Origin: a virus
Taxonomy: Duplodnaviria; Caudoviricetes
Reading direction: 5' to 3' (one strand)
IMG/VR virus record: IMGVR_UViG_3300025872_000063
Span: 1 to 58,928 of that record
Length of the DNA: 58,928 nt
The position numbers and the translations under genes were made by a program. Shown one piece after another: positions 30,540 through 46,987 of the stretch; positions within the stretch are counted from its first letter, which is position 1; the number at the start of each line of letters is the position of its first letter. The notes beneath the pieces were generated by a model that was given only the letters and a program-made list of their open reading frames with translations, ran no database searches and had not been told where the DNA came from.

Positions 30540-30581
30540 TGAGCAGAGTATAATGTGCTCATCAACGACGAAAGGAACACC

Positions 30582-30905: not shown

Positions 30906-30907
30906 TC

Positions 30908-30951: not shown

Positions 30952-30996
30952 ATCTGAGTCGAGTATAATACAATTACACACAACGAAAGGAACACC

Positions 30997-31449: not shown

Positions 31450-31509
31450 TCTGAGCTCTGTATAATACTTATTACATAATTAACAACGACAACGACGACA
31501 AGGACAACC

Positions 31510-32511: not shown

Positions 32512-32607
32512 GCGCAGGCTTGCGGCGGGTTGCCTCGTGGTGGTCGCAGCCCGCCGCAGAATCTGAGTAAGTTATAATGACTAAGTACCCACAACGAAAG
32601 GACGAAC

Positions 32608-34404
32608 ATGGGACACTACAACTTTAGGAGCACGAAGACTGCTCACTCCACATCGCATCCCGAGTGGCTCGCTGTCAGTGCAGCTATCGGACGCATGGTC
32701 AACTTCTGGTCTGGACGCTACGATGTCGCAGCGTTCGCTGGCCCCGGAGCTGGCGAGGGTCATCCAGCCTTCTTCAATCCGAACACCAGCGAGGTCGAGG
32801 TCAACATTGAGAAGTGCTTTGGGCCGGCAACGACTCCCGCAGAGGTTGCGAACATCGATCAGCGATCGGTGCAGTTTGAATGGCCTCGGGCGACCGGCGC
32901 GATTCTTCACGAGTCGTTGCACGCGCGCTATTCGTTCTGGAGCCTCATCGAGGCGCACGACACCCTGACTCCCGCCGAGTTCAACGCTCTCGTTCTTCTC
33001 GAGGAGGGACGAATTGAAGCTCTCGGCATCAAGGCGCTCCCCGGCAACGAACTCTTTCTTCGGACGATGGCGCTCGAGATCGTCCTTGACTCGTTCAAGG
33101 ACATCAACTCGCCATCGGACACGGTGCTCGCAGGCAACATTGCAGCTCTCTCGCTTGCCCGAGTCGACGCCGGCGTACTGACTGACGACGACGTTGCGTC
33201 CATCCGTGATCTCATCTCGGAGAAGCTCGGCGAATCGACGCTCGAGGCTCTCCGTGAGCTCTGGCTGCAGGCTCAGTCGCACAACGACGCGTCGTCCGCC
33301 GAGCCGCTCTACGAGATCGCCCGTGAGTGGGTGCGTGTCATCAACAGCGCGGCTGTCGAGAATGGCGAGCCCGACCCGGGCGCCGGCCAGGACGACGCCG
33401 ACGAGCTCATGTTCAGTCGATTCGGTGAACTGCTCGGTGACATGCTCGACACGGCAGCGGCTGACGTAAGCATCGCAGTGTTCGATGATCTTGCCGACCA
33501 GCAGATGTCCGAGGAATGGAAGAAGGTTGCCAGCGACAAGGCGTCGCAAGCCAAGGACCGCAAGGACGCCGAGAAGATCGCCAGCGACGTCTTCAGCAAG
33601 GGCACGCAAGAGATGCAGACTTCGAAGTCTGGCAGCTCCGTGATCTCATCTCGTGCGCCTAGTGGCGACGAGCGTGCCGCTGCTGTCATCATTGCAAGGC
33701 AGCTCGACAAGGCGAAGTATCGCGATCGCGACGCGACCGAGATCTCGTCGGTCGTTCCTCCCGGTCGACTGCGCACTCGAGCTGCGATGCAGGCCGAGGC
33801 CCTCAAGTCGAAAGGCGCGATGGCCACGGCCGAGCCATGGCGGCGCACCGTCCGCAAGCACACTGACGACCCGACACTTTCCATCGGCGTGATGGTCGAC
33901 ATCAGCGGTTCGATGGGTGATGCGATGCAGCCGATGGCTGTCGCCGCCTGGGCGCTCAGCGAGGCTGTCCGTCGAGTACAGGGCCGCGCCGCGATGGTGT
34001 ACTACGGTAGCGATGCGTTCCCCACTCTCAAGCCGGGACAGCACCTCAGCAAGGTGACCGTGTGGTCTGCGCCTGACGGAACCGAGAAGTTCGATCTCGC
34101 GTTCAAGGCAGTCAACGGTTCTCTCAATCTTCTGTGGGGCACCGGCGCCCGGCTTCTTGTCGTGGTCAGCGACGGATGCTACACGTCGGCAGAGCAGGGT
34201 GCTGCTCGCCAGGCGATGCAGCAGTGCCAGTCGGCTGGTGTCGGAGTTCTCTGGCTCAACTTCAGCGCCTACGGCAATGACGTCAGTCGAATTGTCAAAG
34301 GTACGAACACCGAGGTTGTCTACGTCAAAGGCAGCATCTCGGATGCAGCGACCGCGATTGGCTCGGCTGCAGCGAAGGCATTGACCTCCGCTGCCGCCAG
34401 CTGA
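32608..34404 (+). CDS. vWA-domain protein with N-terminal HExxH metallopeptidase-like domain (CobT-like MoxR partner)
   Basis: HESLH, LLEEGRIE, MIDAS motif DISGSM, VVSDG. Confidence 0.85.
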   Translation: MGHYNFRSTKTAHSTSHPEWLAVSAAIGRMVNFWSGRYDVAAFAGPGAGEGHPAFFNPNTSEVEVNIEKCFGPATTPAEVANIDQRSVQFEWPRATGAILHESLHARYSFWSLIEAHDTLTPAEFNALVLLEEGRIEALGIKALPGNELFLRTMALEIVLDSFKDINSPSDTVLAGNIAALSLARVDAGVLTDDDVASIRDLISEKLGESTLEALRELWLQAQSHNDASSAEPLYEIAREWVRVINSAAVENGEPDPGAGQDDADELMFSRFGELLGDMLDTAAADVSIAVFDDLADQQMSEEWKKVASDKASQAKDRKDAEKIASDVFSKGTQEMQTSKSGSSVISSRAPSGDERAAAVIIARQLDKAKYRDRDATEISSVVPPGRLRTRAAMQAEALKSKGAMATAEPWRRTVRKHTDDPTLSIGVMVDISGSMGDAMQPMAVAAWALSEAVRRVQGRAAMVYYGSDAFPTLKPGQHLSKVTVWSAPDGTEKFDLAFKAVNGSLNLLWGTGARLLVVVSDGCYTSAEQGAARQAMQQCQSAGVGVLWLNFSAYGNDVSRIVKGTNTEVVYVKGSISDAATAIGSAAAKALTSAAAS

Positions 34405-34414
34405 TTGAAGTTCT

Positions 34415-34460
34415 GGGCCGCTTGAGAGGCGTACGTCCTTTCCGTCTCTCAAGCAGGCCC
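34415..34460 (+). terminator. Hairpin with GTCCTTTC loop
   Basis: GCTTGAGAGGCG / CGTCTCTCAAGC stem after the vWA gene. Confidence 0.6.
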
Positions 34461-34628
34461 GCCTATCGCCGTCGATGCAGACGGGCTTGATTCTGAGTCA
34501 GATATAATGACTGCATGATGATTGCCCGCTGCGCGACACCTACCTTGACTGATATCTGAATTCAGGCCTGGTAAGCGCCGCCGGTGCAGACGGGTCCGCT
34601 TCTACAATAGCTACAGCTGAAAGATCAA

Positions 34629-34787
34629 ATGGGACTCTTCACCACGTACATCGGATATAGACTCGGAAGAAAGAAAGCCGCCGCTGAGATCGAAGACATG
34701 CTCGACGATCGTTGCGAGAATTGCGGACACACGCTCAGTCAGCATTCGCGCGATGGACGCCAGCTCTGCCCGACCTATCCAAACTGA
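34629..34787 (+). CDS. Small Cys/His hypothetical protein
   Basis: MGLFTTY...CENCGH; stop is the TGA of the next promoter element. Confidence 0.5.
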   Translation: MGLFTTYIGYRLGRKKAAAEIEDMLDDRCENCGHTLSQHSRDGRQLCPTYPN

Positions 34788-34818
34788 GACACGTATAGTG
34801 TAATCGAAAGGACACGCC

Positions 34819-34983
34819 ATGAAATACATTGTTCGACGCGCCGTGATCAGTCTGCCCGTCTTCATCTTCTTCGTCCGTCGATTCGACGAGCGAGAACTCG
34901 CACCGTACGCTTCCTGGCTGTGGGCCAGTCTGCTGATCTGGGCGATCTGGACTGCTCTGTCCGCCATCGCTGACCCAAACTGA
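34819..34983 (+). CDS. Small membrane protein
   Basis: GAAAGGAC RBS; two hydrophobic segments; stop inside the next element. Confidence 0.6.
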   Translation: MKYIVRRAVISLPVFIFFVRRFDERELAPYASWLWASLLIWAIWTALSAIADPN

Positions 34984-35004
34984 GATCACTATAGTAGGCG
35001 ACAT

Positions 35005-35118
35005 ATGATTATCGAAACTGATGACTGGCTCGAGCAAGCATACGAAGACAGATTCTCCGTCGACGACAACGATGACGCCTATTTCGACGAACTCGACGAC
35101 GATGATGAATCTGAGTAG
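35005..35118 (+). CDS. Very acidic peptide
   Basis: MIIETDDWLEQAYEDRF...DDDDESE. Confidence 0.5.
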   Translation: MIIETDDWLEQAYEDRFSVDDNDDAYFDELDDDDESE

Positions 35119-35158
35119 AGTATAATGTACTCATCAACCAACGACGAAAGGACACAAG

Positions 35159-35527
35159 ATGGACACCACACAGATGGTCAAGGTTGGCAACTTCGGTGTC
35201 GACAGCGGACAGATCGTGGTCATCGACCCCTGCTATGTGTGGGACGACGACTTCATGCCGAACGGCGACCCGACCGGCGGCCCGTATGACGCCGCCTGCC
35301 GCATCACCCTATCCAAGAAGAACTACGGCGAGATCGAGGGCGGCTTTGTCACCAGTACTCTCTACGGTGACGGAACCTACCCCATCTACGCTGAACTGAA
35401 CGAACTCGGTCAGATCGTCCGCATGATCATCGACTTCGATCCCGACTTGAACTGGGACGATGACGATGAAGATGAAGATGAAGACGAAGACGAAGATGTC
35501 GACGATGATAACAACGAGGATGAGTGA
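35159..35527 (+). CDS. Hypothetical protein (DUF4241-like) with acidic tail
   Basis: VDSGQ..V.DP.Y and YGDG.YP.Y motifs; poly-D/E tail. Confidence 0.7.
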   Translation: MDTTQMVKVGNFGVDSGQIVVIDPCYVWDDDFMPNGDPTGGPYDAACRITLSKKNYGEIEGGFVTSTLYGDGTYPIYAELNELGQIVRMIIDFDPDLNWDDDDEDEDEDEDEDVDDDNNEDE

Positions 35528-35530
35528 CAT

Positions 35531-35743
35531 ATGGCGAAGCCATCGATTCAAGACGCAATTGACATACTCAACAACTACGCCGGCGACGTGATGCTGATTG
35601 GTATCGACAAGGTGGCAGAACATGCAGGGCTCAAGCCGAGGGTCGTTCGCAAGTTTACGATCAACGTGCTCGAGGGCAAGAACGCTGACATTCGAAAGAT
35701 CCTCTTGTCAGTCAAAGCTCTAAAGGAGTCCAATGAAGCTTGA
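35531..35743 (+). CDS. HTH-like small protein (paralog of 48798-49073)
   Basis: GIDKVAEHAGLKPRVVRKF versus GVEKVAAKAGVKPSIVKKF. Confidence 0.6.
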   Translation: MAKPSIQDAIDILNNYAGDVMLIGIDKVAEHAGLKPRVVRKFTINVLEGKNADIRKILLSVKALKESNEA

Positions 35744-35903
35744 TCTCTTCGAGCTCAATGGACTTCCGGAAGCCGCTGTGCGCGAACGCATCGCAAGCCT
35801 TGACACAACAATCAAGCATGGCAACTTTGAACCCGTAGTTCTTCGCGAATACGCGAAGGAACTGAAAGCGCTCGTATGGGCGCTTTCAAAGTATTCTGAG
35901 TAA
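35733..35903 (+). CDS. Hypothetical protein
   Basis: AAGGAG RBS; stop TAA inside the next element. Confidence 0.55.
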   Translation: MKLDLFELNGLPEAAVRERIASLDTTIKHGNFEPVVLREYAKELKALVWALSKYSE

Positions 35904-35938
35904 GTTATAATGTACATACACCGAAGAAAGGACACAAC

Positions 35939-36136
35939 ATGGACCACTCACCTCAGATGACGTACTTTGCCACTGATGGCAACTACGGCGACGCAGAGGG
36001 CATCGTCATCATTGACACGCAAAGCTGGACCGAAGACGAATGGACCATCATCGATGAAACACCAGATCGCCAGCGAGCCAGTGTCGCCCTAAGTCTTTCC
36101 AAGTCAAATGATGACCAGCTGGAGCTGTTCAAGTGA
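35939..36136 (+). CDS. Hypothetical protein
   Basis: Cassette promoter and RBS. Confidence 0.65.
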   Translation: MDHSPQMTYFATDGNYGDAEGIVIIDTQSWTEDEWTIIDETPDRQRASVALSLSKSNDDQLELFK

Positions 36137-36399
36137 CTCAACCTGCAGAAGTATCATTCGAGATGCACAAAGATGGTCGATTCACAGACGACCAGCTTTG
36201 GTATTTCGCCGAAGGTGTCAATGACAAGACCAACGAAGAACTTACAGACATTCAGCGCGCCGAGATCTTTGATCTCCTCAAGGACGAAGCAGTCTGGCTT
36301 GTAAATGATCTCGAGCCGTACTTCAAATTTGAAGTCATGCTCGGTCTAGTTCTCTGGTTACGCGGACACAAAGTGTCGACCATTTCTCCAACCTTCTAA
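36133..36399 (+). CDS. Hypothetical protein
   Basis: Coupled GTGA start. Confidence 0.55.
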   Translation: MTQPAEVSFEMHKDGRFTDDQLWYFAEGVNDKTNEELTDIQRAEIFDLLKDEAVWLVNDLEPYFKFEVMLGLVLWLRGHKVSTISPTF

Positions 36400-36579
36400 C
36401 CTAGAAACTGTGAAGAGTATAATGGTAGACATGGCAAACAACCACACAGTTCACGTTCAGTGCAGTACGGAAACCTGTTTCAGCCTCTGGCTCGAACACG
36501 AGAAGTTGGCAAGAACCACTGACATGTACCCGCTCATGTCGCAAGTTCATTCAAATACAGACAACCGAATCGAGAACGT

Positions 36580-36765
36580 ATGACAGCAAAAGCAATTGTG
36601 CGCATTTCTATTCACCAAACAACTGAGAGCAAGCTCACTGTCACGCACACTGACAACGCAGGCGCGTGTTGGAGCGACATCTCCGATGGTGCTGGCCAAG
36701 TCGTGACTATCTTCTTTCGCTCTGCAGAAGAGCGCGATGAGTTCTGGTTCAATGCCTCAGCTTGA
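36580..36765 (+). CDS. Hypothetical protein
   Basis: Coupled to leaderless ORF 36431-36583. Confidence 0.5.
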   Translation: MTAKAIVRISIHQTTESKLTVTHTDNAGACWSDISDGAGQVVTIFFRSAEERDEFWFNASA

Positions 36766-36816
36766 AACTAAGCTAGGTATAATACACCTGCACGACCAAC
36801 TACGAAAGGACACACA

Positions 36817-37503
36817 ATGCCGAACTGGTGCAACAACAACATCTCAATCAGCGGTCCCAAGGCCGACACCGATGCGTTCTTTGCACGTATCGACCACAAG
36901 GACAACGACATGTCCATCCTGCAAACCTTCCTCCCCATGCCCGAAGTGCTGAATGGCACTGTCTCTCCCACCCCAACCTCTCCTGACCCCCACCCAAACT
37001 GGGCGAACATGGTCGCAGAGGGCACAATGACTCAGGAGCGGTACGATGCACTGTGCGCCGACCAGCGCGAGCGGTACGAGAGAGGGCAGAAGTCCTTCAC
37101 TCAGACTGGCTATTACGACTGGTGGCACTGGCAGAACACCAACTGGGGTGTCAAGTGGGGTGACTCGGACACGTCCATCACTCTGTATGAAGATGGCTCC
37201 ATCTCAGGAACTTTCACCACCCCTTGGGGTCCGCCTATCGAGGGTATCCTTCGCATCTCACTGCAGTTTCCGAACTGCACTTTCTGCATCTCTTGGTATG
37301 AACCTGGAATGTGCATGATTGGCGCAGCACGAATCGTCAACGGCGATATTGTCGATGAAACTGAGATCGGACAGGATGAGTGGCCTTCATGGGACGAACA
37401 GGACGATGGCGCCGCGTATGAGGAAGCCATCGACACGCTGGTAACTCGGTGTTCCGCTGAGATCATGTGGGGCGTCGACAGTAGCTCAGGCAACACAAAC
37501 TGA
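36817..37503 (+). CDS. DUF1281/YubB ferredoxin-like domain protein
   Basis: MPNWCNN, W..W...NWGVKW, F.TPWGPP, YEPGM. Confidence 0.8.
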   Translation: MPNWCNNNISISGPKADTDAFFARIDHKDNDMSILQTFLPMPEVLNGTVSPTPTSPDPHPNWANMVAEGTMTQERYDALCADQRERYERGQKSFTQTGYYDWWHWQNTNWGVKWGDSDTSITLYEDGSISGTFTTPWGPPIEGILRISLQFPNCTFCISWYEPGMCMIGAARIVNGDIVDETEIGQDEWPSWDEQDDGAAYEEAIDTLVTRCSAEIMWGVDSSSGNTN

Positions 37504-37544
37504 GCTTTGTATAATGTAGTTACACGAACGACGAAAGGACAGCA

Positions 37545-37808
37545 ATGAGCACAGCTCCCACGAAGCAACTCGCGAATGACGTACTGGAACTCGTGAGAAA
37601 CAAGTACAACTGCCGTTCCGAGGACAACGGTCCGCGTCTAATCATGGACTTTGATTGGTACAACGATCAGGGATGGCCTACGATCGTCTGGGAAGGTGGC
37701 CCCTACGAGTGGGCTGTCGAGTGCAGCTTCGAACTTCTCGATAGCGTTCCCAGGCCCGTCTGGTTCGAGGCGGCTACGGCCTGGGCTCTCAGCATCTACC
37801 TCAACTGA
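37545..37808 (+). CDS. Hypothetical protein
   Basis: Cassette promoter and RBS; IVWEGGPYEW. Confidence 0.7.
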   Translation: MSTAPTKQLANDVLELVRNKYNCRSEDNGPRLIMDFDWYNDQGWPTIVWEGGPYEWAVECSFELLDSVPRPVWFEAATAWALSIYLN

Positions 37809-37866
37809 GCAAACAACTTTCTAAGAAAGTTATAATACAACTACCAACAACGACAAAGGACACAAC

Positions 37867-38235
37867 ATGAACTCATCTTTCGAAACGTCGCACGGAACAA
37901 TCGTGCTCGTCAACCGTAATCAAGCAACTCACGACGGACGAGGCTATCGTTCGAAGCCGCGAATGTACGTCGGAGGCTGCGACGGCTGGAGCAGGGCAGT
38001 GAAGAACACAGTCAGGAGCATCATCGACGAGAGCGGCGTTCCGCTCGACTTGACTGGCGCTCGCTGGTCGCAGTTCGCCGGGTGCAGCTGTCCGTGCTCT
38101 CCCGGCCTCATCCTGAAGTATCAGGGACTCACCATCGGAGAGGTCATCTACACTCACTACGACGTGTACGTGACCATCAAGGACGCTCCTACGATCGAGC
38201 CGGCACTGCCGTCTCGAGTTCTCGTAGGAGTATGA
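37867..38235 (+). CDS. Hypothetical protein (WSQ.AGCSCPCSPG motif)
   Basis: Cassette promoter and RBS. Confidence 0.7.
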   Translation: MNSSFETSHGTIVLVNRNQATHDGRGYRSKPRMYVGGCDGWSRAVKNTVRSIIDESGVPLDLTGARWSQFAGCSCPCSPGLILKYQGLTIGEVIYTHYDVYVTIKDAPTIEPALPSRVLVGV

Positions 38236-38245
38236 AATCGCGCTT

Positions 38246-38287
38246 GAGCGCGCTCGGCAGTTACTGTCCTTTCGGCCGGGCGCGCTC
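38246..38287 (+). terminator. Hairpin with TGTCCTTTCG loop
   Basis: GAGCGCGCTCGGC / GCCGGGCGCGCTC stem. Confidence 0.6.
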
Positions 38288-38436
38288 GCGCGTTTACTGA
38301 GATCTCTACAATGAAAGGAGTCTCGCCGTACACCAGCGACATGGAAGAAACGCAGGCTCGCTAAGGGAGCCGCGGAATGCAGACGGGTCACTTCTGAGCA
38401 AGTTATAATGTATTCGCAACTACGAAAGGACACCAA

Positions 38437-38691
38437 ATGAACGAGCTCAATATCTCGCTAAACGACTGCTACATTCGAGTCATTCCCCAGTCTGACTGCA
38501 CGACACTCTTTTGGACTGATGGCATCAACGACTGGGAAGAGAACTACCAGACGTCATCCGCAGCTTTCTCGCGCCTGGCATGTCTTCTCGCCTGTGCAGA
38601 TTCCAAGTGGCTTCGCGGATTCAACTACGACGAAGAAAAGCATCAGCTCGCTTGGGCCGAGTTTCTTGACGGCGCTCTCGACAGGGACTGA
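38437..38691 (+). CDS. Hypothetical protein
   Basis: Cassette promoter and RBS. Confidence 0.7.
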   Translation: MNELNISLNDCYIRVIPQSDCTTLFWTDGINDWEENYQTSSAAFSRLACLLACADSKWLRGFNYDEEKHQLAWAEFLDGALDRD

Positions 38692-38742
38692 CACTTCTGA
38701 GCAAGTTATAATGTACCCATCAACGACGAAAGGACAAGGCAA

Positions 38743-38889
38743 GTGGGTATTCAAGATTACGCGCACTGGAACGAAGAAGCTTCGCTGATTTGGTGGCTCG
38801 AGGAAGGTCGTCATCCATATGAACCTGAGTTCTCGGATTTCGACGACGATCCCCGGGATGACTGGGATGACTGGGAAGACGTCGACTAA
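38743..38889 (+). CDS. Acidic peptide
   Basis: GTG start after GAAAGGAC; Asp/Trp-rich. Confidence 0.6.
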   Translation: MGIQDYAHWNEEASLIWWLEEGRHPYEPEFSDFDDDPRDDWDDWEDVD

Positions 38890-38951
38890 TCATCTGCTCC
38901 AGCAGAAACTAAGATTGTTATAATGATCTCACAACAACGAAAGGACACACC

Positions 38952-39254
38952 ATGACAGTCAAGTATCCGCACCTCTCCATCGAGCTCGTTGGCCAGGATG
39001 GCAACGCGTTCTCCATCCTCGGACGCCTGCAAGGCGTGCTTCGCCGTGGCGGCGTACCGAAGGACGAGATCGCTGCTGTGATGGCGGAGGCCCAGTCCGG
39101 CGACTACAGCCACCTGCTGGTCACCGTCATGAACACCGTCTCGGTCGACTCGAGCGACGACGAGGACGACGACCACGACCCGTGGGGCGACGACGAGGCC
39201 GACGACGTGTGGGGCGACTTCTACGACGAAGAATTTGAAGAGGTGCTCGACTGA
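38952..39254 (+). CDS. Conserved hypothetical protein (LVGQDGNAFSILG) with acidic tail
   Basis: Cassette promoter and RBS. Confidence 0.75.
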   Translation: MTVKYPHLSIELVGQDGNAFSILGRLQGVLRRGGVPKDEIAAVMAEAQSGDYSHLLVTVMNTVSVDSSDDEDDDHDPWGDDEADDVWGDFYDEEFEEVLD

Positions 39255-39323
39255 CAACGTCGCGTGACAATGTCAAGATCTGAGTAAGATATAATAATCT
39301 CAACAACAACGAAAGGACACGAC

Positions 39324-39569
39324 ATGAACGATGATTATCCGGAAGATGATTACGACAATGAAGGTGAGATCATCGCCGAGTTCATTATGAGCTGGGTCGC
39401 CGGCGGCGGTCGCGCGAGCGATGCGATGGTGGCCTATCACCAACACAAGGCGATGGCTGCCGGCACCTGGCCGCCCAATGAAGAAGAGGATAGCTCCCCG
39501 CGGTACGGGGACCCCGACTTCGACTATGAAGGTCTTTATCTCTGGGAGATGAATCAAGAAATGTACTGA
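39324..39569 (+). CDS. Acidic hypothetical protein
   Basis: Cassette promoter and RBS. Confidence 0.65.
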   Translation: MNDDYPEDDYDNEGEIIAEFIMSWVAGGGRASDAMVAYHQHKAMAAGTWPPNEEEDSSPRYGDPDFDYEGLYLWEMNQEMY

Positions 39570-39891
39570 CAGCCAGCAAGGCTGACACCTCCTGAGTATG
39601 AGGCTAAACTGCTCGGGACGAACCTATGGCTGTAATGGCAATCGTTCCTTATGAATACAGCCCTCACGACTTTCGCCAGCGGGAGTCGCGCGAATATAAA
39701 GCTGGCAGGGGCATCGATACCCCCAATGTAAACCTGTGGCCCGCAGGCGAGAGTATCGAAGGGTTTATTAGAATCTGCATAGCCCGTCTCAACTATGTAG
39801 AGTGACGCACGCTTTATGAGCATATTGAAAGAGCGTTGGTGTTGCCGACCTGAGCATGTCGACCATAAACTGCTCGGGACAAACCTATGGC
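39570..39891 (+). ncRNA. Candidate pseudoknot-rich structured RNA region
   Basis: Two copies of stem-CTGAG(C/T)AT-stem-TAAACTGCTCGGGAC.AACCTATGGC with covarying stems, enclosing further hairpins and a pseudoknot; no RBS-led ORF. Confidence 0.6.
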
Positions 39892-39956
39892 AGACGGACA
39901 AGGAAATAAGTTCTGAGTTTGATATAATAATCTCAGGAACAACGAAAGGACACACG

Positions 39957-40199
39957 ATGAACATCATGGATTTGAAGAATGCTGTCGATCTCGCACTCGA
40001 GCGGGGAATCGACCCTAACTGCACTGTTGTGCTGGGTCTTGGAGACGTTTCTCAGACCCTCGAGTGGGCCATCTTGGACATGATCGAAGATCCGTCAAAC
40101 CCCGACAACACGTATGAGGGTGTGATTTGGTTCACTCTGTTTCCCGGAGAGGAAGCAGATGGCCGCTTCACTCCATGCCATTGGCCCGCGGATGCGTAA
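39957..40199 (+). CDS. Hypothetical protein
   Basis: Cassette promoter and RBS. Confidence 0.7.
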   Translation: MNIMDLKNAVDLALERGIDPNCTVVLGLGDVSQTLEWAILDMIEDPSNPDNTYEGVIWFTLFPGEEADGRFTPCHWPADA

Positions 40200-40307
40200 G
40201 TGTCCCGTAGAAAGTTCAGGCCTGGAAGGGCGCCAGAATGCAGACGGGCCATCTTCGTCAAGTTCTGAGTAAGTTATAATGCACTAGTACGCAAGAAAGG
40301 ACAGCAG

Positions 40308-40475
40308 ATGAAGTGCAAATGCGCGATGTGCGGACGAGACAACTCCGCCAAACTGGGCAGGGCGTCGTACGCCCGTTCAGGGATCTACACCTCCGAGCAA
40401 AAGTCCAAGGGCGACATCAAGCGCATCGAACGTCGCCTCCGTCGTCGTCGTGAGAACTTCGACCTCTCTTTCTGA
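40308..40475 (+). CDS. Small basic Cys-containing protein
   Basis: MKCKCAMCG...RRLRRRR; stop inside the next element. Confidence 0.6.
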   Translation: MKCKCAMCGRDNSAKLGRASYARSGIYTSEQKSKGDIKRIERRLRRRRENFDLSF

Positions 40476-40493
40476 GAAAGGTATAATGACACC

Positions 40494-40655
40494 ATGATCA
40501 GCTACGAACACAAGGGGGGCGCATGGCTGCTTCCTCTCACTGGAACACGCGACGTCCCGACGTGCCAAGACTGCGAAGAGACCAATGGTCTCGAGTTCGT
40601 GTCCTGGATCGACGCCTACCTCTGCCCTGAATGCCTAGCTAACGAACTTGGCTGA
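40494..40655 (+). CDS. Small zinc-ribbon protein (leaderless)
   Basis: CQDC...CPEC. Confidence 0.6.
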   Translation: MISYEHKGGAWLLPLTGTRDVPTCQDCEETNGLEFVSWIDAYLCPECLANELG

Positions 40656-40711
40656 CCTCATTTGCTTTCTGAGCAAGTTATAATGATCTCACAACGACGA
40701 AGGGACAAGCA

Positions 40712-40867
40712 ATGAACACCATCACCGAGGGTCTGATCTTCAAGGCCCGCTGCACGATCGCAGAGATCGAAGACTGCTTCGATATGAACTCGGCGCTCGA
40801 GCTGATCGACAAGCTCTCCCGTCGCATCAATGAACTGATCGACGAGCTGGAGTCGATCAAGAACTGA
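40712..40867 (+). CDS. Small helical protein
   Basis: Cassette promoter and RBS. Confidence 0.6.
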   Translation: MNTITEGLIFKARCTIAEIEDCFDMNSALELIDKLSRRINELIDELESIKN

Positions 40868-40885
40868 GTAAGTTATAATGTACTC

Positions 40886-41170
40886 ACAACATCAACCGCA
40901 CGAAGAGCGCTTCGGCACCGACGTACGGTAGCAAGTCACAAGACGTTAGACGCAAGCCTCTGGCACGATAAGGCTCTCAGCATCCAAAGCGATACTGCTC
41001 TACGACGACCATGGCGTCGCACCAGTCCCTCCTCACGGATCAGATCCGTCCTCCTCTGTACGCATCCGCCACTCTAATCGTCTTACTCTGCTACCCGACT
41101 GCTCCCCGGCCAAGGAGCAGAACGCCGGGCGTTTCCGGAGACCAGCCGGAGCGTTCTTCATGTGGTTGAT
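40886..41170 (+). ncRNA. Rod-shaped ~285-nt ncRNA, copy 1 (possibly Ms1/6S-like)
   Basis: Own promoter; 26-nt terminal stem 40891-40916/41145-41170 (22 WC, 3 G-U, 1 mismatch); paralog at 43278-43555. Confidence 0.8.
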
Positions 41171-41216
41171 TCTGAGCAAGTTATAATGTACTTACCAACG
41201 AGGAAAGGACAAAGCA

Positions 41217-41384
41217 ATGCCGAGCAACTACCCCGACGGAATGCGCGAGTCGGACATCCCGGGCTGGTGGGACGTGGAGTGCCCGACCTGTGAGGAGGAG
41301 GGGTACACCGACGACTGCCCCACCTGCGAGGGAACTGGCAACATCGACAGTCGCAGCCGGTGGGAGCCGGAATACGACGACTGA
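41217..41384 (+). CDS. Small acidic zinc-ribbon protein
   Basis: CPTC...CPTCEGTG. Confidence 0.65.
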   Translation: MPSNYPDGMRESDIPGWWDVECPTCEEEGYTDDCPTCEGTGNIDSRSRWEPEYDD

Positions 41385-41467
41385 ACTCGGCGCCTCGAGC
41401 GCTGGCCGGCGCCTCGAGCGCTGGCCGGCGCCTCGAGCGCAAGAACTAAGAAAGGTATAATGAGACC

Positions 41468-41737
41468 ATGCTCAAGATCAACGTAACAACTTCCCGTCGA
41501 GATGGCGATTATTCCGATGTCTTCATCCAATATGCGGACGACGACAAGATTCACGCCGGCGCAATACGCAAGACGCTGACTGGCAAGTGGAATACCATCG
41601 TCGACGGAGAACTCTACACCGCTCGGACAAAGTCGGACGCCGTTCTCACGGTTTGCTATCTGACTGGACCGAAGTTCTTTTCTGGCGCAGTCTATAAGTA
41701 CGGTGCTTACACACTTGCACTTCCAAGTTCTGAGTAA
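41468..41737 (+). CDS. Hypothetical protein (leaderless)
   Basis: ATG 7 nt after TATAAT; stop inside the next element. Confidence 0.65.
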   Translation: MLKINVTTSRRDGDYSDVFIQYADDDKIHAGAIRKTLTGKWNTIVDGELYTARTKSDAVLTVCYLTGPKFFSGAVYKYGAYTLALPSSE

Positions 41738-41773
41738 GTTATAATGTACTCACCAACGAGGAAAGGACAAAGC

Positions 41774-41998
41774 ATGGACGAGATGATCGTGATCGACACG
41801 CCGGAGGGCATCGAACACTTCCGCCTCGCGGCGCTCATTGCGGCGCTTCGCATCGAAGTCAAGACTGGAATGGTCGGCCGTATGCCGACCCTGCCAGTCG
41901 CCAGGAGCTACGGCGTGCAGGCCAGGACCAAGAAGAAGGCACTCGAGGAGCTCGAGGGCATCTACATGGTCACCTACGGCAGGCCGTACGGATCGTGA
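41774..41998 (+). CDS. Hypothetical protein
   Basis: Cassette promoter and RBS. Confidence 0.7.
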   Translation: MDEMIVIDTPEGIEHFRLAALIAALRIEVKTGMVGRMPTLPVARSYGVQARTKKKALEELEGIYMVTYGRPYGS

Positions 41999-42106
41999 CC
42001 GCCACGGCGGGCCGGCGCAATGAATGCCGGCCCGCCAGGCGGCGCAATGCAGACGGGCCACTTCTGAGCAAGTTATAATGTACTTACAACGAGGAAAGGA
42101 CACACA

Positions 42107-42271
42107 ATGAAGACGAGCAACGAACTTCTCAAGTTGGTCAGGGAGAGCGTGGAGCTCGCGGACGAGCGCAAGAACGTCGGAACGCTTGGCCCGTGGGAGG
42201 CGATCGGTATTCTCAAGAGCACGGTCAACTTTCTCATCACGCACATCGAGCGTGATCAGACTTCTGAGTAA
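42107..42271 (+). CDS. Hypothetical protein
   Basis: Cassette promoter and RBS; stop inside the next element. Confidence 0.6.
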   Translation: MKTSNELLKLVRESVELADERKNVGTLGPWEAIGILKSTVNFLITHIERDQTSE

Positions 42272-42285
42272 GGTATAATGTATTC

Positions 42286-42441
42286 ATGGGAACGACAAAG
42301 AACAACTCGAGGACCAAGTGGGCATGGACAGACGCTGAGCGTCAGGCATTCGCGGATGGCGTCCGCGTCCGTGCACAGCGGATTCCAAACAAGAAGCGCA
42401 TCGCGTCACGGAACGCGTGCCGGCGTGGAGGCGGCGAATGA
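42286..42441 (+). CDS. Small basic protein (leaderless)
   Basis: MGTTKNN...IPNKKRIASRNACRR. Confidence 0.55.
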   Translation: MGTTKNNSRTKWAWTDAERQAFADGVRVRAQRIPNKKRIASRNACRRGGGE

Positions 42442-42500
42442 CCGGCCCGCTAAGCGCCGGCGCGCAGACGGGTCACTTCTAAGAAAGGTATAATGACGAC

Positions 42501-42662
42501 ATGAGCGAATACACCATCCAGGGAAACTACGGCTTCGGCTGGGAAGATCTGACGACCGAAGAAACTATGCCAGAGGCAAAGCAGCGACTCAGCGAGTACA
42601 ACGAGAACGAATCGAGCGTTCCCCATCGAATCAAAGTCAGCGTCAAACTGAGCAAGTTATAA
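42501..42662 (+). CDS. Hypothetical protein (leaderless)
   Basis: IQGNYGFGWEDL; stop is the TAA of the next TATAAT. Confidence 0.6.
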   Translation: MSEYTIQGNYGFGWEDLTTEETMPEAKQRLSEYNENESSVPHRIKVSVKLSKL

Positions 42663-42669
42663 TGACGAC

Positions 42670-42840
42670 ATGAACGACAACGACATCAAGATTCGCGCCC
42701 AAGAGATCGTCCAGACCTGCGAGATGGAGTACCCAGAAGCTGGTGACGAAGCCATCTACCAGATGGCCGTCGACATGAAGTTTCACTCTGGGTGGAGCGA
42801 AGACGACGTGAACGAGTTGCTCAGTGTCCTCGGATTCTGA
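42670..42840 (+). CDS. Acidic hypothetical protein (leaderless)
   Basis: Stop inside the next element. Confidence 0.6.
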   Translation: MNDNDIKIRAQEIVQTCEMEYPEAGDEAIYQMAVDMKFHSGWSEDDVNELLSVLGF

Positions 42841-42879
42841 GCAAGTTATAATGATCTCACAACGAGGAAGGGACAAGCA

Positions 42880-43065
42880 ATGACGTTTGATAACTGGATG
42901 GACAAGGTCGACGAGTTCATGGAGATCCTCTGCGGCCTGAACTCTGAGTGCATCGAAGACTACTGCTACCGCGATGAGTACGACGCCGGCGCCTCGCCGA
43001 AAGAGGTCGCACTGCGCGCTCTCAAGAACGCGAACTACGACACCACTGTCAACTACATTCGGTGA
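42880..43065 (+). CDS. Acidic hypothetical protein
   Basis: MTFDNWMDKVD...YRDEYDAG.SP. Confidence 0.7.
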   Translation: MTFDNWMDKVDEFMEILCGLNSECIEDYCYRDEYDAGASPKEVALRALKNANYDTTVNYIR

Positions 43066-43112
43066 AACTGAGTAAGTTATAATACAATTACACCACGGCG
43101 AAAGGACACCCG

Positions 43113-43259
43113 ATGAACGAGAACAACGAGCCCGACTTCCTTGATCACGGCTGGCAGAACTGCCCCGGCGGGGCGGAGGCCCACCAAGCGCACATGGAGA
43201 TGAACGGCGACTGCCCGTGGTGCGCGTCCTACGACAAGTCCAAGTGGCTCGATTTCTGA
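43113..43259 (+). CDS. Small Cys/His protein
   Basis: Cassette promoter and RBS; CPWC. Confidence 0.55.
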   Translation: MNENNEPDFLDHGWQNCPGGAEAHQAHMEMNGDCPWCASYDKSKWLDF

Positions 43260-43277
43260 GCTTGGTATAATACACTC

Positions 43278-43555
43278 ATCAACCGCACGAAGAGCGCTTC
43301 GGCGCCAACGCGGACGAACCCAAGATAAGGCTCTCTAGCAAGCCTCTGGCACGATAAGGCTCTCAGCATCCAAAGCGATACTGCTCTACGACGACCATGG
43401 CGTCGCACCAGTCCCTCCTCACGGATCAGATCCGTCCTCCTCTGTACGCATCCGCTACTTGAATCCGTCCTCTTGTACCGTCCACCAGTCCCCGGCCAGG
43501 GACTGAAGCGTCGGGGTTTCCGGAGACCAGCCGGAGCGTTCTTCATGTGGTTGAT
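43278..43555 (+). ncRNA. Rod-shaped ~278-nt ncRNA, copy 2 (possibly Ms1/6S-like)
   Basis: Same terminal stem (43278-43303/43530-43555); 118-nt core identical to copy 1; compensatory changes in the flanking helices. Confidence 0.8.
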
Positions 43556-43774
43556 TCTGAGCAAGTTATAATGTACTTACCAACGAGGAAAGGACAAAGC
43601 GATGGATGACGCGATCGAGGCCTGCTGGTTCTGCGGAGACGCCAACGTGCTCATGGTGATCGACGACTGGGAATACGGCGAGTTCGGGGTGTGCACCGAC
43701 TGCGCGGACGATCCCGGCCTGAGCTGAGGCCGGCGCTCGAGCCGGCTGGCCGGCGCTCGAGCCGGCTGGCCGGC
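43553..43774. repeat. 222-bp whole-cassette duplication, copy 1
   Basis: Identical to 44516-44737. Confidence 0.9.
43602..43727 (+). CDS. 41-aa acidic zinc-ribbon peptide, copy 1
   Basis: CWFC...CTDC. Confidence 0.65.
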   Translation: MDDAIEACWFCGDANVLMVIDDWEYGEFGVCTDCADDPGLS

Positions 43775-43834
43775 TGGCCGGCGCAAGTTCTGAGCAAGTT
43801 ATAATGTACTTACCAACGATGAAAGGACACAGCG

Positions 43835-43978
43835 ATGGCAAAGTACTCGACCCGGATGCACGAGGTGTACGACACGCGGTACTGCCTGGTGATCTACTGC
43901 GGTTCGCAGAGCGCCTGCAAGCGGTTCGTGATGAACTCGCCCCGCAAGTGGCTGGCGGTGCGCCCTGCGGGGCGCTGA
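43835..43978 (+). CDS. Small basic protein
   Basis: Cassette promoter and RBS. Confidence 0.55.
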   Translation: MAKYSTRMHEVYDTRYCLVIYCGSQSACKRFVMNSPRKWLAVRPAGR

Positions 43979-44052
43979 GCCGGCTGGCCGGCTGGCCGGC
44001 GCAAGTTCTGAGCAAGTTATAATGTACTTACCAACGAGGAAAGGACAAAGCG

Positions 44053-44271
44053 ATGGTCACGATCGAGCTCGATGTCGCGCACGATGAAATGCCGCTGGAG
44101 CAGGTGCTCCAGACGATTATGGACGAGGTGCCGTCCACCCAAGCCGTGCTGGTCGACGTCAATGGCCCCACGGGCTGGCCTGTGGTCAAGTTCACGATGG
44201 ACGAGAGCGCCCTCGAGCGCTTTGCTGAGGTGTATGGCGCCGACGTGGACGAGCTGCGCGACCTGCTCTGA
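44053..44271 (+). CDS. Acidic hypothetical protein
   Basis: NGPTGWPVV.F. Confidence 0.7.
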   Translation: MVTIELDVAHDEMPLEQVLQTIMDEVPSTQAVLVDVNGPTGWPVVKFTMDESALERFAEVYGADVDELRDLL

Positions 44272-44351
44272 GCCGGCGCTCGAGCCGGCTGGCCGGCTGA
44301 GCCGGCTGGCCGGCTGGCCGGCGCAAGTTCTGAGCAAGTTATAATGTACTC

Positions 44352-44534
44352 ATGAACAGCCGCTGCACGATCAATCAACTCCACTGCGAGAACTGTGGGA
44401 GCACCGACCCGTACGATGTCGAAGATCTTGCCGACACCGATGGGTACACCCGCTGCTGCAATGAGTGCCGCTCGTACGGTCCGAACGACTGCCGGGGGTT
44501 CCACTGCGACTGGGAGATTCTGAGCAAGTTATAA
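44352..44534 (+). CDS. Cys-rich peptide (leaderless)
   Basis: HCENCGS...GYTRCCNE; stop inside the next element. Confidence 0.6.
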   Translation: MNSRCTINQLHCENCGSTDPYDVEDLADTDGYTRCCNECRSYGPNDCRGFHCDWEILSKL

Positions 44535-44737
44535 TGTACTTACCAACGAGGAAAGGACAAAGCGATGGATGACGCGATCGAGGCCTGCTGGTTCTGCGGA
44601 GACGCCAACGTGCTCATGGTGATCGACGACTGGGAATACGGCGAGTTCGGGGTGTGCACCGACTGCGCGGACGATCCCGGCCTGAGCTGAGGCCGGCGCT
44701 CGAGCCGGCTGGCCGGCGCTCGAGCCGGCTGGCCGGC
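44516..44737. repeat. 222-bp whole-cassette duplication, copy 2
   Basis: Identical to 43553-43774. Confidence 0.9.
44565..44690 (+). CDS. 41-aa acidic zinc-ribbon peptide, copy 2
   Basis: Identical to 43602-43727. Confidence 0.65.
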   Translation: MDDAIEACWFCGDANVLMVIDDWEYGEFGVCTDCADDPGLS

Positions 44738-44826
44738 GCTCGAGCCGGCTGGCCGGCGCTCGAGCCGGCGAGCAGGCAAGTTCTGAGTAAGTTATAATGT
44801 ACTTACCAACGAGGAAAGGACACAGG

Positions 44827-45072
44827 ATGAACATCCGAGAACTGATCACGGAGCTCGAGGAGATCGCTGACAGCGCCGCCGAGGGCGACGACCTCAAGGT
44901 CATGATCGCGACGCAGCCGAACTGGCCTCTGCAGGCTGAGATCGCCTGCGTGTCGTACGTCGATGGCCGACTCTACATCGCGGAGGGGTATGCGCCTTAC
45001 GACTCGCCGTACGCGCCTCGAGCAGCCTGGGAGGCTCGCAATGCGGACCAGGACGAGGACTGGGGGGACTGA
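44827..45072 (+). CDS. Hypothetical protein (ATQPNWPL motif)
   Basis: Cassette promoter and RBS. Confidence 0.7.
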   Translation: MNIRELITELEEIADSAAEGDDLKVMIATQPNWPLQAEIACVSYVDGRLYIAEGYAPYDSPYAPRAAWEARNADQDEDWGD

Positions 45073-45166
45073 GGCCGGCGCTCGAGCCGGCGAGCCGGCG
45101 CTCGAGCCGGCTGGCCGGCGCTCGAGCCGGCGAGCAGGCAAGTTCTGAGTAAGTTATAATGTACTC

Positions 45167-45332
45167 ACGATCAGTACTAGTTGGGCGAATCCGCTGTAAC
45201 GGGATTCGTTAAATGAAGCGAGTATCTACATCTTGGGAAGTGCTGAGGCGCGGTAGTGGAAGCCTGCGGGCCATGGAGCTACACGTCTATGACGTACGGA
45301 ATGGGTGTAGTGAAAGAATAGCGGAACCCAAC
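45167..45332 (+). ncRNA. Candidate structured ncRNA (~165 nt)
   Basis: Own promoter, no RBS; GTTGGG..TCCGCT / AGCGGA.CCCAAC long-range stem, TCAGTACT/AGTGCTGA, CTACAC/GTGTAG. Confidence 0.55.
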
Positions 45333-45379
45333 AAATCTAAGCAAGTTATAATGATCTCACAACGACGAAAGGACGCACT

Positions 45380-45589
45380 GTGCAGTACATTACAGATCGC
45401 ACCGTAGAACTCACCGAGTGTGAGGCGCTGATCGCAGAGATTCACGCGCTGCTGATGGACCAAGGAATGCACCAGCATGACGCGGTCGACAAGATTCTCG
45501 GATCGACTGTTCCGATCTACCTCAAGTCCGCTACTCCCATTCTGGACAAGGTGATCTCCGCCGAGTTCATCGCTTGGTTGCGTGAGTGA
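45380..45589 (+). CDS. Hypothetical protein
   Basis: GTG after GAAAGGAC. Confidence 0.6.
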   Translation: MQYITDRTVELTECEALIAEIHALLMDQGMHQHDAVDKILGSTVPIYLKSATPILDKVISAEFIAWLRE

Positions 45590-45624
45590 TTCCGATGCAA
45601 ACTAAGAAATGTACAATTTCAAAC

Positions 45625-45897
45625 ATGAACACGATTCCCAACACTCCCATCACCATCGACGTCTACGCCACGGCCCTCGCCGCCCAGCTCACCGCGCTCG
45701 TCGCCACCGACCCGTCCCGCTACACCGGGGTGTCGTCGTGGGACGACCTCTGCGATCTCTACGACGGACTTCTGAAGGACACCGACGCCTCGCTCGGCTA
45801 CGACGTGGACCTCGCGGATCTCGCGGACTTCGATGGATATGCGGCTATTGTTGTTCCCGCTGTCGATTCAGTCGTCGCTGCGCGCTTCCCGATCTAG
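45625..45897 (+). CDS. Hypothetical protein (leaderless)
   Basis: ATG after TACAAT. Confidence 0.65.
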   Translation: MNTIPNTPITIDVYATALAAQLTALVATDPSRYTGVSSWDDLCDLYDGLLKDTDASLGYDVDLADLADFDGYAAIVVPAVDSVVAARFPI

Positions 45898-45930
45898 CCG
45901 GCTCGGTTCTGAGCAAGTTATAATACTATC

Positions 45931-46197
45931 ATGACGCTGAACATCGCAAAGATCACCCACACCCACACCGACACCGACACCAACACGATCTACTTCACCG
46001 CCGCCTTCATCGAACCCGACGACAACGAAACCTACACGCTCAACATCGCCTACCGTCCGTTCGACGAATCGATCGACATCGACATCGAAGGAAACGCATA
46101 CTCCGCCGACTCCGACACGATCACCGACTCGCAATACTTCGACGACTCCGCGATCGCATTCATCACTCAAACTGCTCGCGATCACAACCTGCTCTAA
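45931..46197 (+). CDS. Acidic hypothetical protein (leaderless)
   Basis: ATG 7 nt after TATAAT. Confidence 0.65.
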   Translation: MTLNIAKITHTHTDTDTNTIYFTAAFIEPDDNETYTLNIAYRPFDESIDIDIEGNAYSADSDTITDSQYFDDSAIAFITQTARDHNLL

Positions 46198-46238
46198 CCG
46201 ACCCTCCGGCTCGGTTCTGAGCAAGTTATAATGTACTC

Positions 46239-46803
46239 ACGGAAAGAAACAACTACAAAGTCAACACGGAAGTTATTCAGGCGACGATGCGACAATATCC
46301 CCTAGGATTGTCAAAGAACAGCATCGCAAGGGTTCGATTCCCTAAACTTTCACTGAGTACCGCAGGTAAGGCAAAGGCACATTGTGCTGGATTATATAGG
46401 GCTCCTATATAGGGGATACCGTGAAATCGGGAACCGCCGAGCGATAATATAGTCTGCAAACTATATTGTCTACTGTTGCAGCAGTAGCCTGTGGGAAAAT
46501 CTAGTGAGGTTCCCTTGGTGGGACGCAAGTGCGATTAGAAAGCCAGAATCGCGGCCTCAACAATTTATGAGGACAGCATCAATATTCCCCCGGCCGGTGA
46601 GATGTTGCCCCAGAGAGAATGCCCGATAGTCCCGGTGGCATTGCCATCAGCGCGAGTAGTAATCGCGCCGAAGCAGGGGGATACCGATAGGCATTGCAAG
46701 GCTTACTCATAAAATCGTATTGCGGGTAGCGGTTGGTCCCGTTACTTAAATGAACTAGCGTATGTCGCCGCAATACGAACCATCTCCGCGAAGCATCTGC
46801 GGA
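46239..46803 (+). ncRNA. Large multi-domain ncRNA candidate (~565 nt)
   Basis: Fills a whole cassette between two promoters with no plus-strand ORF; more than 10 hairpins, a T-loop hairpin and long-range pairings. Confidence 0.75.
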
Positions 46804-46849
46804 TCTGAGAACATTATAGTTATACTCGCAACAACGAAAGGACGCAGCG

Positions 46850-46987
46850 ATGGAAGACATGCTCGGGAAGCTCACGACAACGAGCGGAAGAGTCTTGTTC
46901 GGCGAGATCGTTCTCGTCAACGAGGAAACCGGTGTAACATGTATCGTCCGCGACGGAAAGATCGTGCGGGACGACGAGGAAGAGTAG
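46850..46987 (+). CDS. Small hypothetical protein
   Basis: Cassette promoter and RBS. Confidence 0.55.
   Translation: MEDMLGKLTTTSGRVLFGEIVLVNEETGVTCIVRDGKIVRDDEEE

Follow-up and report, generated by a model that had tools for sequence, protein, structure and literature searches.

Introduction

The tRNA-like domain of tmRNA is built of an acceptor stem, a T-arm, a D-loop-like stretch without a D-stem and a long helix in place of the anticodon arm, and the tRNA cluster of phage T4 gives rise to two small stable RNAs, C and D, that are co-transcribed and processed with the tRNAs. The main determinant for RNase P is a 7-base-pair (bp) acceptor stem. The M. smegmatis YrlA RNA, a tRNA-like Y RNA with a 7-bp acceptor stem, is described as being cut by RNase P and as receiving CCA (PMC4201824). 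GOLLD and ROOL are phage RNAs that lie near tRNA islands and form homo-oligomeric cages, and the GOLLD linker sometimes carries tRNAs (bioRxiv 10.1101/2024.12.08.627333); they are abundant, their structures have been solved and their function is still puzzling. Here we analyse a non-coding cassette of a phage, contained in a 58,928-nucleotide (nt) IMG/VR virus record (IMGVR_UViG_3300025872_000063, judged 44% complete; the whole stretch is called the window). We are highly confident that its positions 46268-46562 form a genuine structured RNA, which shares the tRNA-gene context of GOLLD and ROOL. The RNA is a family absent from Rfam that newly combines a tRNA-like handle with a covarying domain of several helices, here called domain A. 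In the explanation that we favour, and to which we give roughly even chances, the RNA is non-coding and promoter-driven, the effector would be domain A and the tRNA mimicry would serve to recruit tRNA-processing enzymes of the host.

Results

Homologs and covariation define a structured RNA

The 22-nt block 46469-46490 shows no difference between the window and a contig from river RNA, and a 20-mer from it was used for searching. This 20-mer, invariant in everything it retrieved, led to nine loci, one in IMG/VR and eight in metagenomes, all of which match the window by nhmmer at E = 3e-48 to 4e-17. They comprise five distinct variants, with identities to the window over the shared part of 83% (L095, identical to L100 and L103), 80% (L097, identical to L098), 78% (L096, identical to L102), 81% (L099) and 58% (L101). 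The part common to the variants is window 46268-46562 only, about 295 nt, and its first two elements are the following.

46268-46352 (+): tRNA-like domain, with acceptor stem 46268-74/46345-51, D-loop-like stretch ATTCAGGCGA, arm 46285-90/46321-26, T-loop 46334-40 and discriminator A46352
46353-46501 (+): domain A, multi-helix, with closing helix 46360-67/46487-94
46370-72/46436-38, 46376-81/46383-88, 46392-97/46407-12 and 46413-14/46434-35 (+): inner helices of domain A, first set
46419-21/46428-30, 46443-53/46460-70 and 46471-76/46481-86 (+): inner helices of domain A, second set
46454-59 (CTGCAA) and 46476-81 (TTGCAG) (+): invariant loops of domain A

For domain A, RNAalifold on the six sequences predicts 45 pairs in eight helices, including a long-range closing helix and two short helices that tie conserved single strands together, and 95.5% of the 268 cells of the pair table are standard pairs. 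Double changes occur in 16 domain A pairs as compared with 6.3±1.7 in shuffled alignments, none of 500 shuffles reaching 16, and registers slid by 1-3 columns give 2-6 such pairs; on six related sequences these controls are indicative and are not probabilities. By hand count from the pair table 37 of the 268 cells are G-U, which would become A-C mismatches if read on the other strand, so that the plus strand is the functional one. Covarying homologs, on which the original prediction had made its case depend, therefore exist.

Individual helices of the prediction fared differently. Five of the six pairs of CGATGC/GCATCG covary among three sequence types and the helix GATAATATAGT/ACTATATTGTC has double changes in six of its 11 pairs, whereas covariation is silent on CTACTG/CAGTAG because this helix is invariant. 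A pseudoknot had been proposed between TATCCCCT and AGGGGATA; it is not conserved, as L096 and L098 lack the C-rich loop yet keep GGGGA, and two G of the GGGGA run pair with CC at 46434-35, with one compensatory change. The proposed pairing GGGAACC/GGTTCCC also falls, as its halves sit in different conserved helices and four of the five variants lack the second half after domain A.

Folding energy by itself would not have singled out the region. The whole region is unremarkable on both strands (z = −1.68 on the plus strand and −1.81 on the minus strand) and the conserved half, 46268-46562, reaches z = −2.92 with one of 200 shuffles as good, so that the case rests on homologs and not on helix density. 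Ordinary whole-region z-scores, and the resemblance of the tRNA-like piece to phage tRNA-Ser genes, are what decayed tRNA genes or other non-functional intergenic sequence could also present. For 46268-46562 such decay is contradicted by the compensatory changes in 16 domain A pairs, by a 20-mer that is invariant across sequences as low as 58% identical and by an RNA contig of high depth (below), and we give it next to no credence there; it is possible for 46563-46802.

The two invariant loops of domain A, CUGCAA and UUGCAG, are exact reverse complements in all six sequences, with a duplex energy of −6.1 kcal/mol, and they cap stems of unequal length (11 and 6 bp) that abut without a linker. 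This arrangement would make an intramolecular kiss awkward and favour pairing between molecules, and it is conceivable that domain A molecules join through these loops into dimers or rings that display the tRNA-like domain, as in the cages of GOLLD and ROOL, themselves phage RNAs from the vicinity of tRNA islands. The tRNA-like domain and domain A would then represent a new ornate phage RNA class, whose dimers or closed rings would present a tRNA mimic that can be processed and perhaps charged, although we doubt that this is so. As both loops are invariant there is no covariation between them, and a 6-nt match between two given loops is expected about once in 4096 by chance, but several loops were inspected. 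Moreover, the whole 20-mer including the stem is invariant, and recognition by a protein or another nucleic acid fits equally well. Self-assembly is thus an appealing yet unlikely alternative, or addition, to the effector role that we favour for domain A; if true, the RNA would in principle be a small relative of the GOLLD and ROOL cages and tractable at about 235 nt.

The family appears rare in the material searched. A covariance model of domain A, R1, finds the domain only in the window and the nine loci among 96 sources (1.3 Mb in total). The stretch has no match in 50,697 phage records, and nhmmer of 46200-46850 gave none in 81 loci around related terminases. Pattern scans with a 24-mer from 46406-46429 returned nothing, and the pattern GAGTACC..GGTAAGG..AACCGCCGA had no match in viral and genome contigs, being too strict in that L095 has one change. 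With the T-loop, GAGTACC and GGTAAGG as a strict pattern, only L095 was found in viral contigs and nothing in the genomes of 185,579 prokaryote species (one genome each). Searches with a 19-mer of the T-arm found ordinary tRNA genes only, mostly tRNA-Ser. The stretch or parts of it are contained in freshwater, aquatic and river metagenome runs, of which 20 were listed, four with at least half of the sampled words.

The cassette is neither coding nor a known RNA family

The cassette had been said to hold no plus-strand open reading frame (ORF), and none that is credible was found: within 46241-46802 the plus-strand ORFs are of 41, 41 and 36 amino acids (aa), without a convincing ribosome-binding site, and an 80-aa plus-strand frame runs into the next gene and overlaps it in another frame. 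Across the conserved part no frame is open in all six sequences (the window and the five distinct homologs), L096 having at least three stops in every frame. A coding reading of the cassette was ruled out by the short ORFs and by the lack of a commonly open frame.

On the window at gathering score, Rfam 15 reports four tRNAs only. A permissive scan (E ≤ 10) of 46100-46950 gave three chance-level matches, the best at E = 0.97, and the best homolog (L096:9200-9960) matches no family at E < 0.1. GOLLD was found neither on the window at gathering score nor at E ≤ 10 on 46100-46950 or L096:9200-9960, and ROOL was found on none of these three; group I/II introns, RNase P RNA and OLE had no match on the window or on 46100-46950. 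Default ARAGORN on the window reports no tRNA or tmRNA in the cassette. From these empty Rfam and ARAGORN results we conclude that the cassette is not GOLLD, ROOL, OLE, an intron, RNase P RNA or tmRNA. Membership of GOLLD or ROOL, one of the two options of the original prediction, is thus abandoned, and its other option, a new class of RNA, stands with a modular unit of about 295 nt. No account of this RNA was found in the literature searched; an IMG/VR catalogue (PMC10690425), with 8,495 candidates between 29 and 151 nt long, may include part of it in supplements beyond the reach of the search.

The tRNA-like domain

All seven pairs of the acceptor stem are present in all five aligned variants, with one swap of A-U to C-G. 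The place of the anticodon arm and variable region is taken by a 6-bp arm (46285-90/46321-26) that encloses a variable hairpin, and all six of its pairs form, five positions covarying among three sequence types. The T-loop, TTCRATT, is kept in six of six sequences; the T-loop hairpin had been noticed in the sequence beforehand, and the tRNA-like nature of the 5' domain only glimpsed. The discriminator is A in five variants and G in L096, and no CCA is encoded. An invariant linker, CTGAGTA, joins the tRNA-like domain to domain A, and the two are adjacent in all six sequences.

Neither default ARAGORN nor the Rfam tRNA model RF00005 calls this domain. At a threshold of 80%, ARAGORN calls exactly 46268-46353 a tRNA and does so in three of the six sequences, with unrelated 'anticodons' (cta, gac and a 4-nt ataa); as the called anticodon differs in each homolog, nothing is decoded. 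The domain has no D-arm or 7-nt anticodon loop and hence no cloverleaf. What it does have is an acceptor stem of 7 bp and, stacked with this, a T-arm whose loop reads TTCRATT and whose stem has only 3-4 pairs. A phage tRNA-Ser region that shares this acceptor and T-arm aligns with the domain in nhmmer (E = 1.5e-4). For L101 it is uncertain which sequence forms the 5' acceptor strand; one candidate, lying 30 nt farther upstream, would create a G3-U70 pair.

The acceptor stem, the T-arm and the D-loop-like stretch without a D-stem seem to resemble those of tmRNA, and together with the possible G3-U70 pair of L101 they could suggest that the RNA is a tmRNA that has diverged, or some other RNA for ribosome rescue constructed around the tRNA-like domain. 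This is largely refuted, and we regard it as most improbable. Both default ARAGORN and the Rfam tmRNA models (E ≤ 10) are empty, and ARAGORN at a threshold of 70% returns mutually inconsistent 'tags' in four of the six sequences. Position 3-70 is A-U in all five aligned variants. No frame has a conserved stop, and the sole tag-like stretch, which is itself a covarying helix, contains a 1-nt indel. The window, a record 44% complete, has no SmpB gene.

Module B and the 3' part of the cassette

Downstream of domain A the conserved part ends in a third element, module B, beyond which the sequence is particular to this phage.

46505-46559 (+): module B, a three-way junction with closing helix 46505-10/46554-59 and hairpins 46511-14/46520-23 and 46530-37/46546-53
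46563-46802 (+): lineage-specific 3' part, with predicted GCGCGA/TCGCGC (46650-55/46663-68) and an end hairpin (46786-89/46799-802)
46715-25/46768-78 (+): predicted 11-bp helix of the 3' part, around hairpin 46726-32/46739-45 and TTAAATGA (46746-53)

Module B is present in three sequences and has 18 pairs, eight of them with double changes. The predicted helix GCGATT/AATCGC proved to be part of it; between the window and L096 it shows wobble changes only, the double changes coming from L099. A pattern scan for module B in IMG/VR gave no further copy.

As regards the 3' part, nhmmer of 46555-46810 against all loci gave no matches, and its folding is ordinary (z = −1.62). The helix GCGCGA/TCGCGC and the 11-bp helix around GTAGCGG/CCGTTAC, both named in the original prediction, are present in the sequence, and no homolog covers them. 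Positions 46563-46802 are specific to this phage and unproven as structured RNA. The ornate RNA of about 565 nt that had been predicted is therefore upheld by covariation over the roughly 295 nt of 46268-46562, and not over the 3'-most 240 nt or so, for which there is neither a homolog nor unusual folding.

The 11-bp helix with its inner hairpin and TTAAATGA resembles the start of 'domain C', an RNA element of L095, L096, L098, L099 and the window's own cassette at 45143. A 'mini domain C' at 46715-46778 was considered and is not claimed, because a model made from the four non-window sequences finds no match there at E ≤ 10. The cassette at 45143-45335 (+) holds a 'domain C' RNA with GTTGGG, a covarying hairpin, TTAAATGA and a far CCCAAC able to close the domain, and its positions 45176-45228 are detected at E = 8e-5 by the model from L095, L096, L098 and L099 only.

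Modularity and genomic context

Apart from the pair formed by the tRNA-like domain and domain A, the modules occur in differing orders. In L099 module B lies alone between two genes, and a further RNA-like module is found 5' of the tRNA-like domain in L096, 3' of domain A in L097/L098 and beside a Pistol ribozyme in L095/L103.

L096:9254-9331, L098:2379-2283 (−) and L095:4820-4893: further RNA-like module

The Pistol ribozyme (Rfam 49.9 bits, gathering score 34.5) is at L095:4910-4974 and L103:8586-8650 (+), about 700 nt upstream of the RNA and on the same strand. Immediately 5' of the RNA, L099 and L095 are 92% identical to the non-coding window stretch 39588-39890, 6.4 kb away, the match to L099 extending over 216 nt, and L100 and L103 match it as well. 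Same-strand tRNA genes lie within about 0.4-4.3 kb in four of the five distinct homolog contexts, and it is through these contexts that the RNA has the location typical of GOLLD and ROOL, in a phage and near tRNA islands; the window's own tRNA genes are farther off, the nearest about 20 kb from the RNA. Pfam searches on 10 ORFs of the homolog loci revealed no shared RNA-related family and no TROVE domain as a companion protein. Ro60/TROVE (PF05731) has no match in the window, with the control positive in 2 of 14 genomes, and SmpB and the CCA-adding enzyme family are likewise absent from the window; these absences from the window apply to the 44% of the genome that the record represents.

Such rearrangement could fit another arrangement of functions, in which each module would be a small RNA in its own right, several of them being carried by one transcript as in a tRNA array, and the tRNA-like piece would act alone with a function unrelated to domain A. 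Each module has its own closing helix, module B stands alone in L099, the further module changes sides of the conserved pair between L096 and L097/L098, and a promoter copy of its own, at 45143, precedes the 'domain C' RNA. The mimic might then engage aminoacyl-tRNA synthetases, enzymes that modify tRNAs or host defences that target tRNAs, either as a decoy or as their substrate, a role that we consider improbable. For tRNA-Leu truncated to lack its anticodon and variable arms, charging is described as persisting provided that A73 and the D/T-loop contacts are retained, and the identity of serine tRNAs is described as independent of the anticodon (PMC9976931); the predominance of A as discriminator is compatible with this. 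Nevertheless, charging is here a proposal from the sequences, and the 5' acceptor strand is uncertain in L101. The adjacency of the tRNA-like domain and domain A in six of six sequences, with an invariant linker, further points to a functional unit or at least to coupled processing, and full independence of the modules appears to us an outside chance beside the explanation in which the tRNA-like domain serves domain A.

Presence in RNA libraries

In each of two metatranscriptomes from rivers a contig aligns with 46410-46557 at 87% identity, one of 396 nt at depth 196 and the other of 332 nt at depth 107, and the differences from the window fall pairwise on opposite strands of predicted helices. 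The loose ends of the contig equal the sequence of L096; it is thus a discrete high-depth contig of the closest variant and, being of L096 type, is not independent evidence of covariation. The window's own 3' part is represented in two RNA runs by near-identical contigs, 46574-46755 at depth 7 and 46601-46754 at depth 4.8, and the flanking coding genes are uncovered in the RNA runs save for a low-complexity repeat; parts of the stretch without RNA-run cover were not counted as evidence. The low-depth 3' contigs are a weak hint of transcription, with DNA carry-over uncontrolled.

The DNA runs X5 and X6 contributed nothing beyond nearly identical pieces of low depth and a pile-up on low-complexity sequence at 45954-45986. 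At these positions a CAC/GAC repeat (Thr-His/Thr-Asp run) in the upstream 88-aa gene draws many unrelated metagenome contigs, with a summed depth of about 5000 in one run.

The promoter-like repeat and the cassette array

The record encodes a large terminase, PhoH, a primase, a ribonucleotide reductase and four tRNAs. A 26-nt repeat, TTCTGAGCAAGTTATAATGTACTYAC, occurs in it in 24 copies (at most 6 substitutions), all on the plus strand between 30.5 and 46.2 kb (window 30537-46240) and none on the minus strand. Since a start codon follows within about 45 nt in 20 of the 24 copies, mostly after a short leader with a GAAAGGA-type ribosome-binding site, we read the repeat as a putative promoter from the order of repeat, leader, ribosome-binding site and start codon. 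It was not called by a generic sigma-70 scan and has no −35 element; its conservation is contiguous from about −19 to +7, reminiscent of promoters of a phage-specific RNA polymerase or sigma factor. A pattern search with a 17-mer of the promoter returned one unrelated record only. No gene start follows four of the copies, at 40862, 43254, 45143 and 46215, the last of which precedes the RNA.

46215-46240 (+): promoter-like repeat TTCTGAGCAAGTTATAATGTACTCAC, copy 24 of 24, with TATAAT at 46227-46232
46241-46267 (+): short 5' leader, separating the repeat from the tRNA-like domain, not conserved in homologs
46803-46828 (+): degenerate promoter-like repeat copy, followed by GAAAGGA and the ATG of a 45-aa ORF (46850-46987)

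An exact 25-mer of the 46215 repeat recurs at 45900. The degenerate copy at 46803-46828 is outside the 24 counted.

With this degenerate copy, with no terminator found for the cassette and with a gene within about 60-190 nt downstream in L101 and L099, the RNA could be pictured as a long, structured 5' leader through which the small genes downstream are regulated in cis. The downstream content differs per variant, however, with a tRNA-Arg about 400 nt further on in L096 and unrelated ORFs elsewhere, and the distance to the next start codon varies from about 60 to about 350 nt. We therefore hold regulation in cis to be very unlikely.

Several other parts of the array were noted. Cassettes 40862-41170 and 43254-43555 (+) are paralogous, 91% identical and without a credible ORF, and they share one hairpin with apparently compensatory changes (CTGCTCC/GGAGCAG versus CAGTCC/GGACTG). 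Cassettes 40862 and 45143 had no nhmmer match in all fetched loci, and no homolog of the 43254 paralog was present in them either. G+C-rich palindromic repeats CGGCTGGCCGGCTGGCCGGC lie just 5' of three promoter copies (43760-43790, 43980-44010 and 44261-44339); they gave a spurious microRNA match (E = 0.011; 33 bits, gathering score 80) and are perhaps terminator hairpins. Cassettes 43555-43610 and 44518-44575 have an identical leader and first codons (ATGGATGACGCGATCGAGGCC...), which points to a probable recent tandem duplication inside the array. Window 39570-39920 (+) is another stretch without a credible plus-strand ORF; a second promoter-like motif, CCTGAGYATG...AAACTGCTCGGGAC, occurs in it twice and is also found ahead of a tRNA in L099.

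Discussion

In light of these data, we propose that the 26-nt repeat drives transcription from about 46239 and that the tRNA-like domain mimics a class II-type tRNA precursor, at whose 5' end host RNase P would cut and whose 3' end would be handled by the host's machinery for 3' tRNA processing and CCA addition. This processing would set the ends of a stable, abundant RNA, in which domain A would be the effector that binds a partner. That host tRNA enzymes handle the domain is suggested by the 7-bp acceptor stem and by the precedent of M. smegmatis YrlA as far as it is described (PMC4201824). Three of the four tRNA genes of the window are clearly without an encoded CCA, and the fourth ends in CCA ambiguously; at least three of four phage tRNA genes would thus rely on CCA addition by the host, in line with the proposed processing.

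Several observations weigh against this proposal and, in part, against the RNA evidence behind it. The T-stem is weak, with three G-C pairs to which the window alone adds A-U, the other four having U-U there. No intrinsic terminator was found for the cassette and, as the downstream promoter copy is degenerate, the RNA could run on into the next gene. RNA libraries can contain DNA, and a control with a silent stretch is absent from the comparison; the two RNA runs share year and habitat and could stem from a single campaign, and what they provide are assembled contigs and not read-level starts, ends or processing sites. The high-depth contigs moreover start inside domain A and lack the tRNA-like domain, which may reflect either an assembly break or differing abundance. 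The family is rare and its covariation rests on just six distinct sequences; shuffled alignments can be exceeded by related sequences that have no structure, though structure is supported by the slid-register control as well. BLAST found the RNA in none of 50 whole records of relatives by terminase, and model R1 in one of 42 such records, L095's own, already known; as these searches do not find it in relatives, the RNA is best described from its distribution as an accessory element.

The locus bears on several wider points. At least four of the phage's 24 promoter cassettes would be given over to non-coding RNAs, and RNA domains appear to be shuffled between phages like protein domains. With its small size and a tRNA-like handle fused to a well-defined domain, the RNA should also lend itself to easy biochemistry.

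Comparison with known systems

Among the known systems, class II tRNAs are the closest in sequence to the tRNA-like domain: its acceptor stem GGAAGTT/AACTTCC and its T-arm are identical to those of the phage tRNA-Ser(GCT) genes in L090-L093, and the overall length (68-95 nt) is also alike, whereas the D-stem and the anticodon arm are lacking and the discriminator is A in five of six. With tmRNA it appears to share the acceptor stem, the T-arm, the D-loop-like stretch without a D-stem and a long helix at the place of the anticodon arm; unlike in tmRNA, this long helix ends in a short hairpin and encloses no mRNA-like domain, a tag frame is lacking and A-U occupies position 3-70. To the T4 stable RNAs C and D the RNA may be likened by analogy only, from their general description and not from sequence comparison.

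Like GOLLD and ROOL, the RNA is phage-encoded, has homologs in or beside tRNA clusters, consists of conserved and variable parts, carries an attached tRNA-shaped element and is abundant in RNA libraries. It differs from them in that it has no Rfam match, in that its core is about 295 nt as compared with about 600-800 nt and in that it is rarer, with six distinct sequences; oligomerisation, established for their cages, is here a hypothesis drawn from loop complementarity. Like the YrlA Y RNAs it is non-coding and has a tRNA-mimicking domain with a T-arm and an acceptor-like stem, but there is no Rfam match and no Ro60/TROVE gene in the window (a record 44% complete), the tRNA-like domain is at the 5' end and is not enclosed by a Ro-binding stem, and domain A has no counterpart in YrlA. 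Taken together, the RNA works most like the ornate phage RNAs and the tRNA-mimicking Y RNAs, and it is a member of neither.

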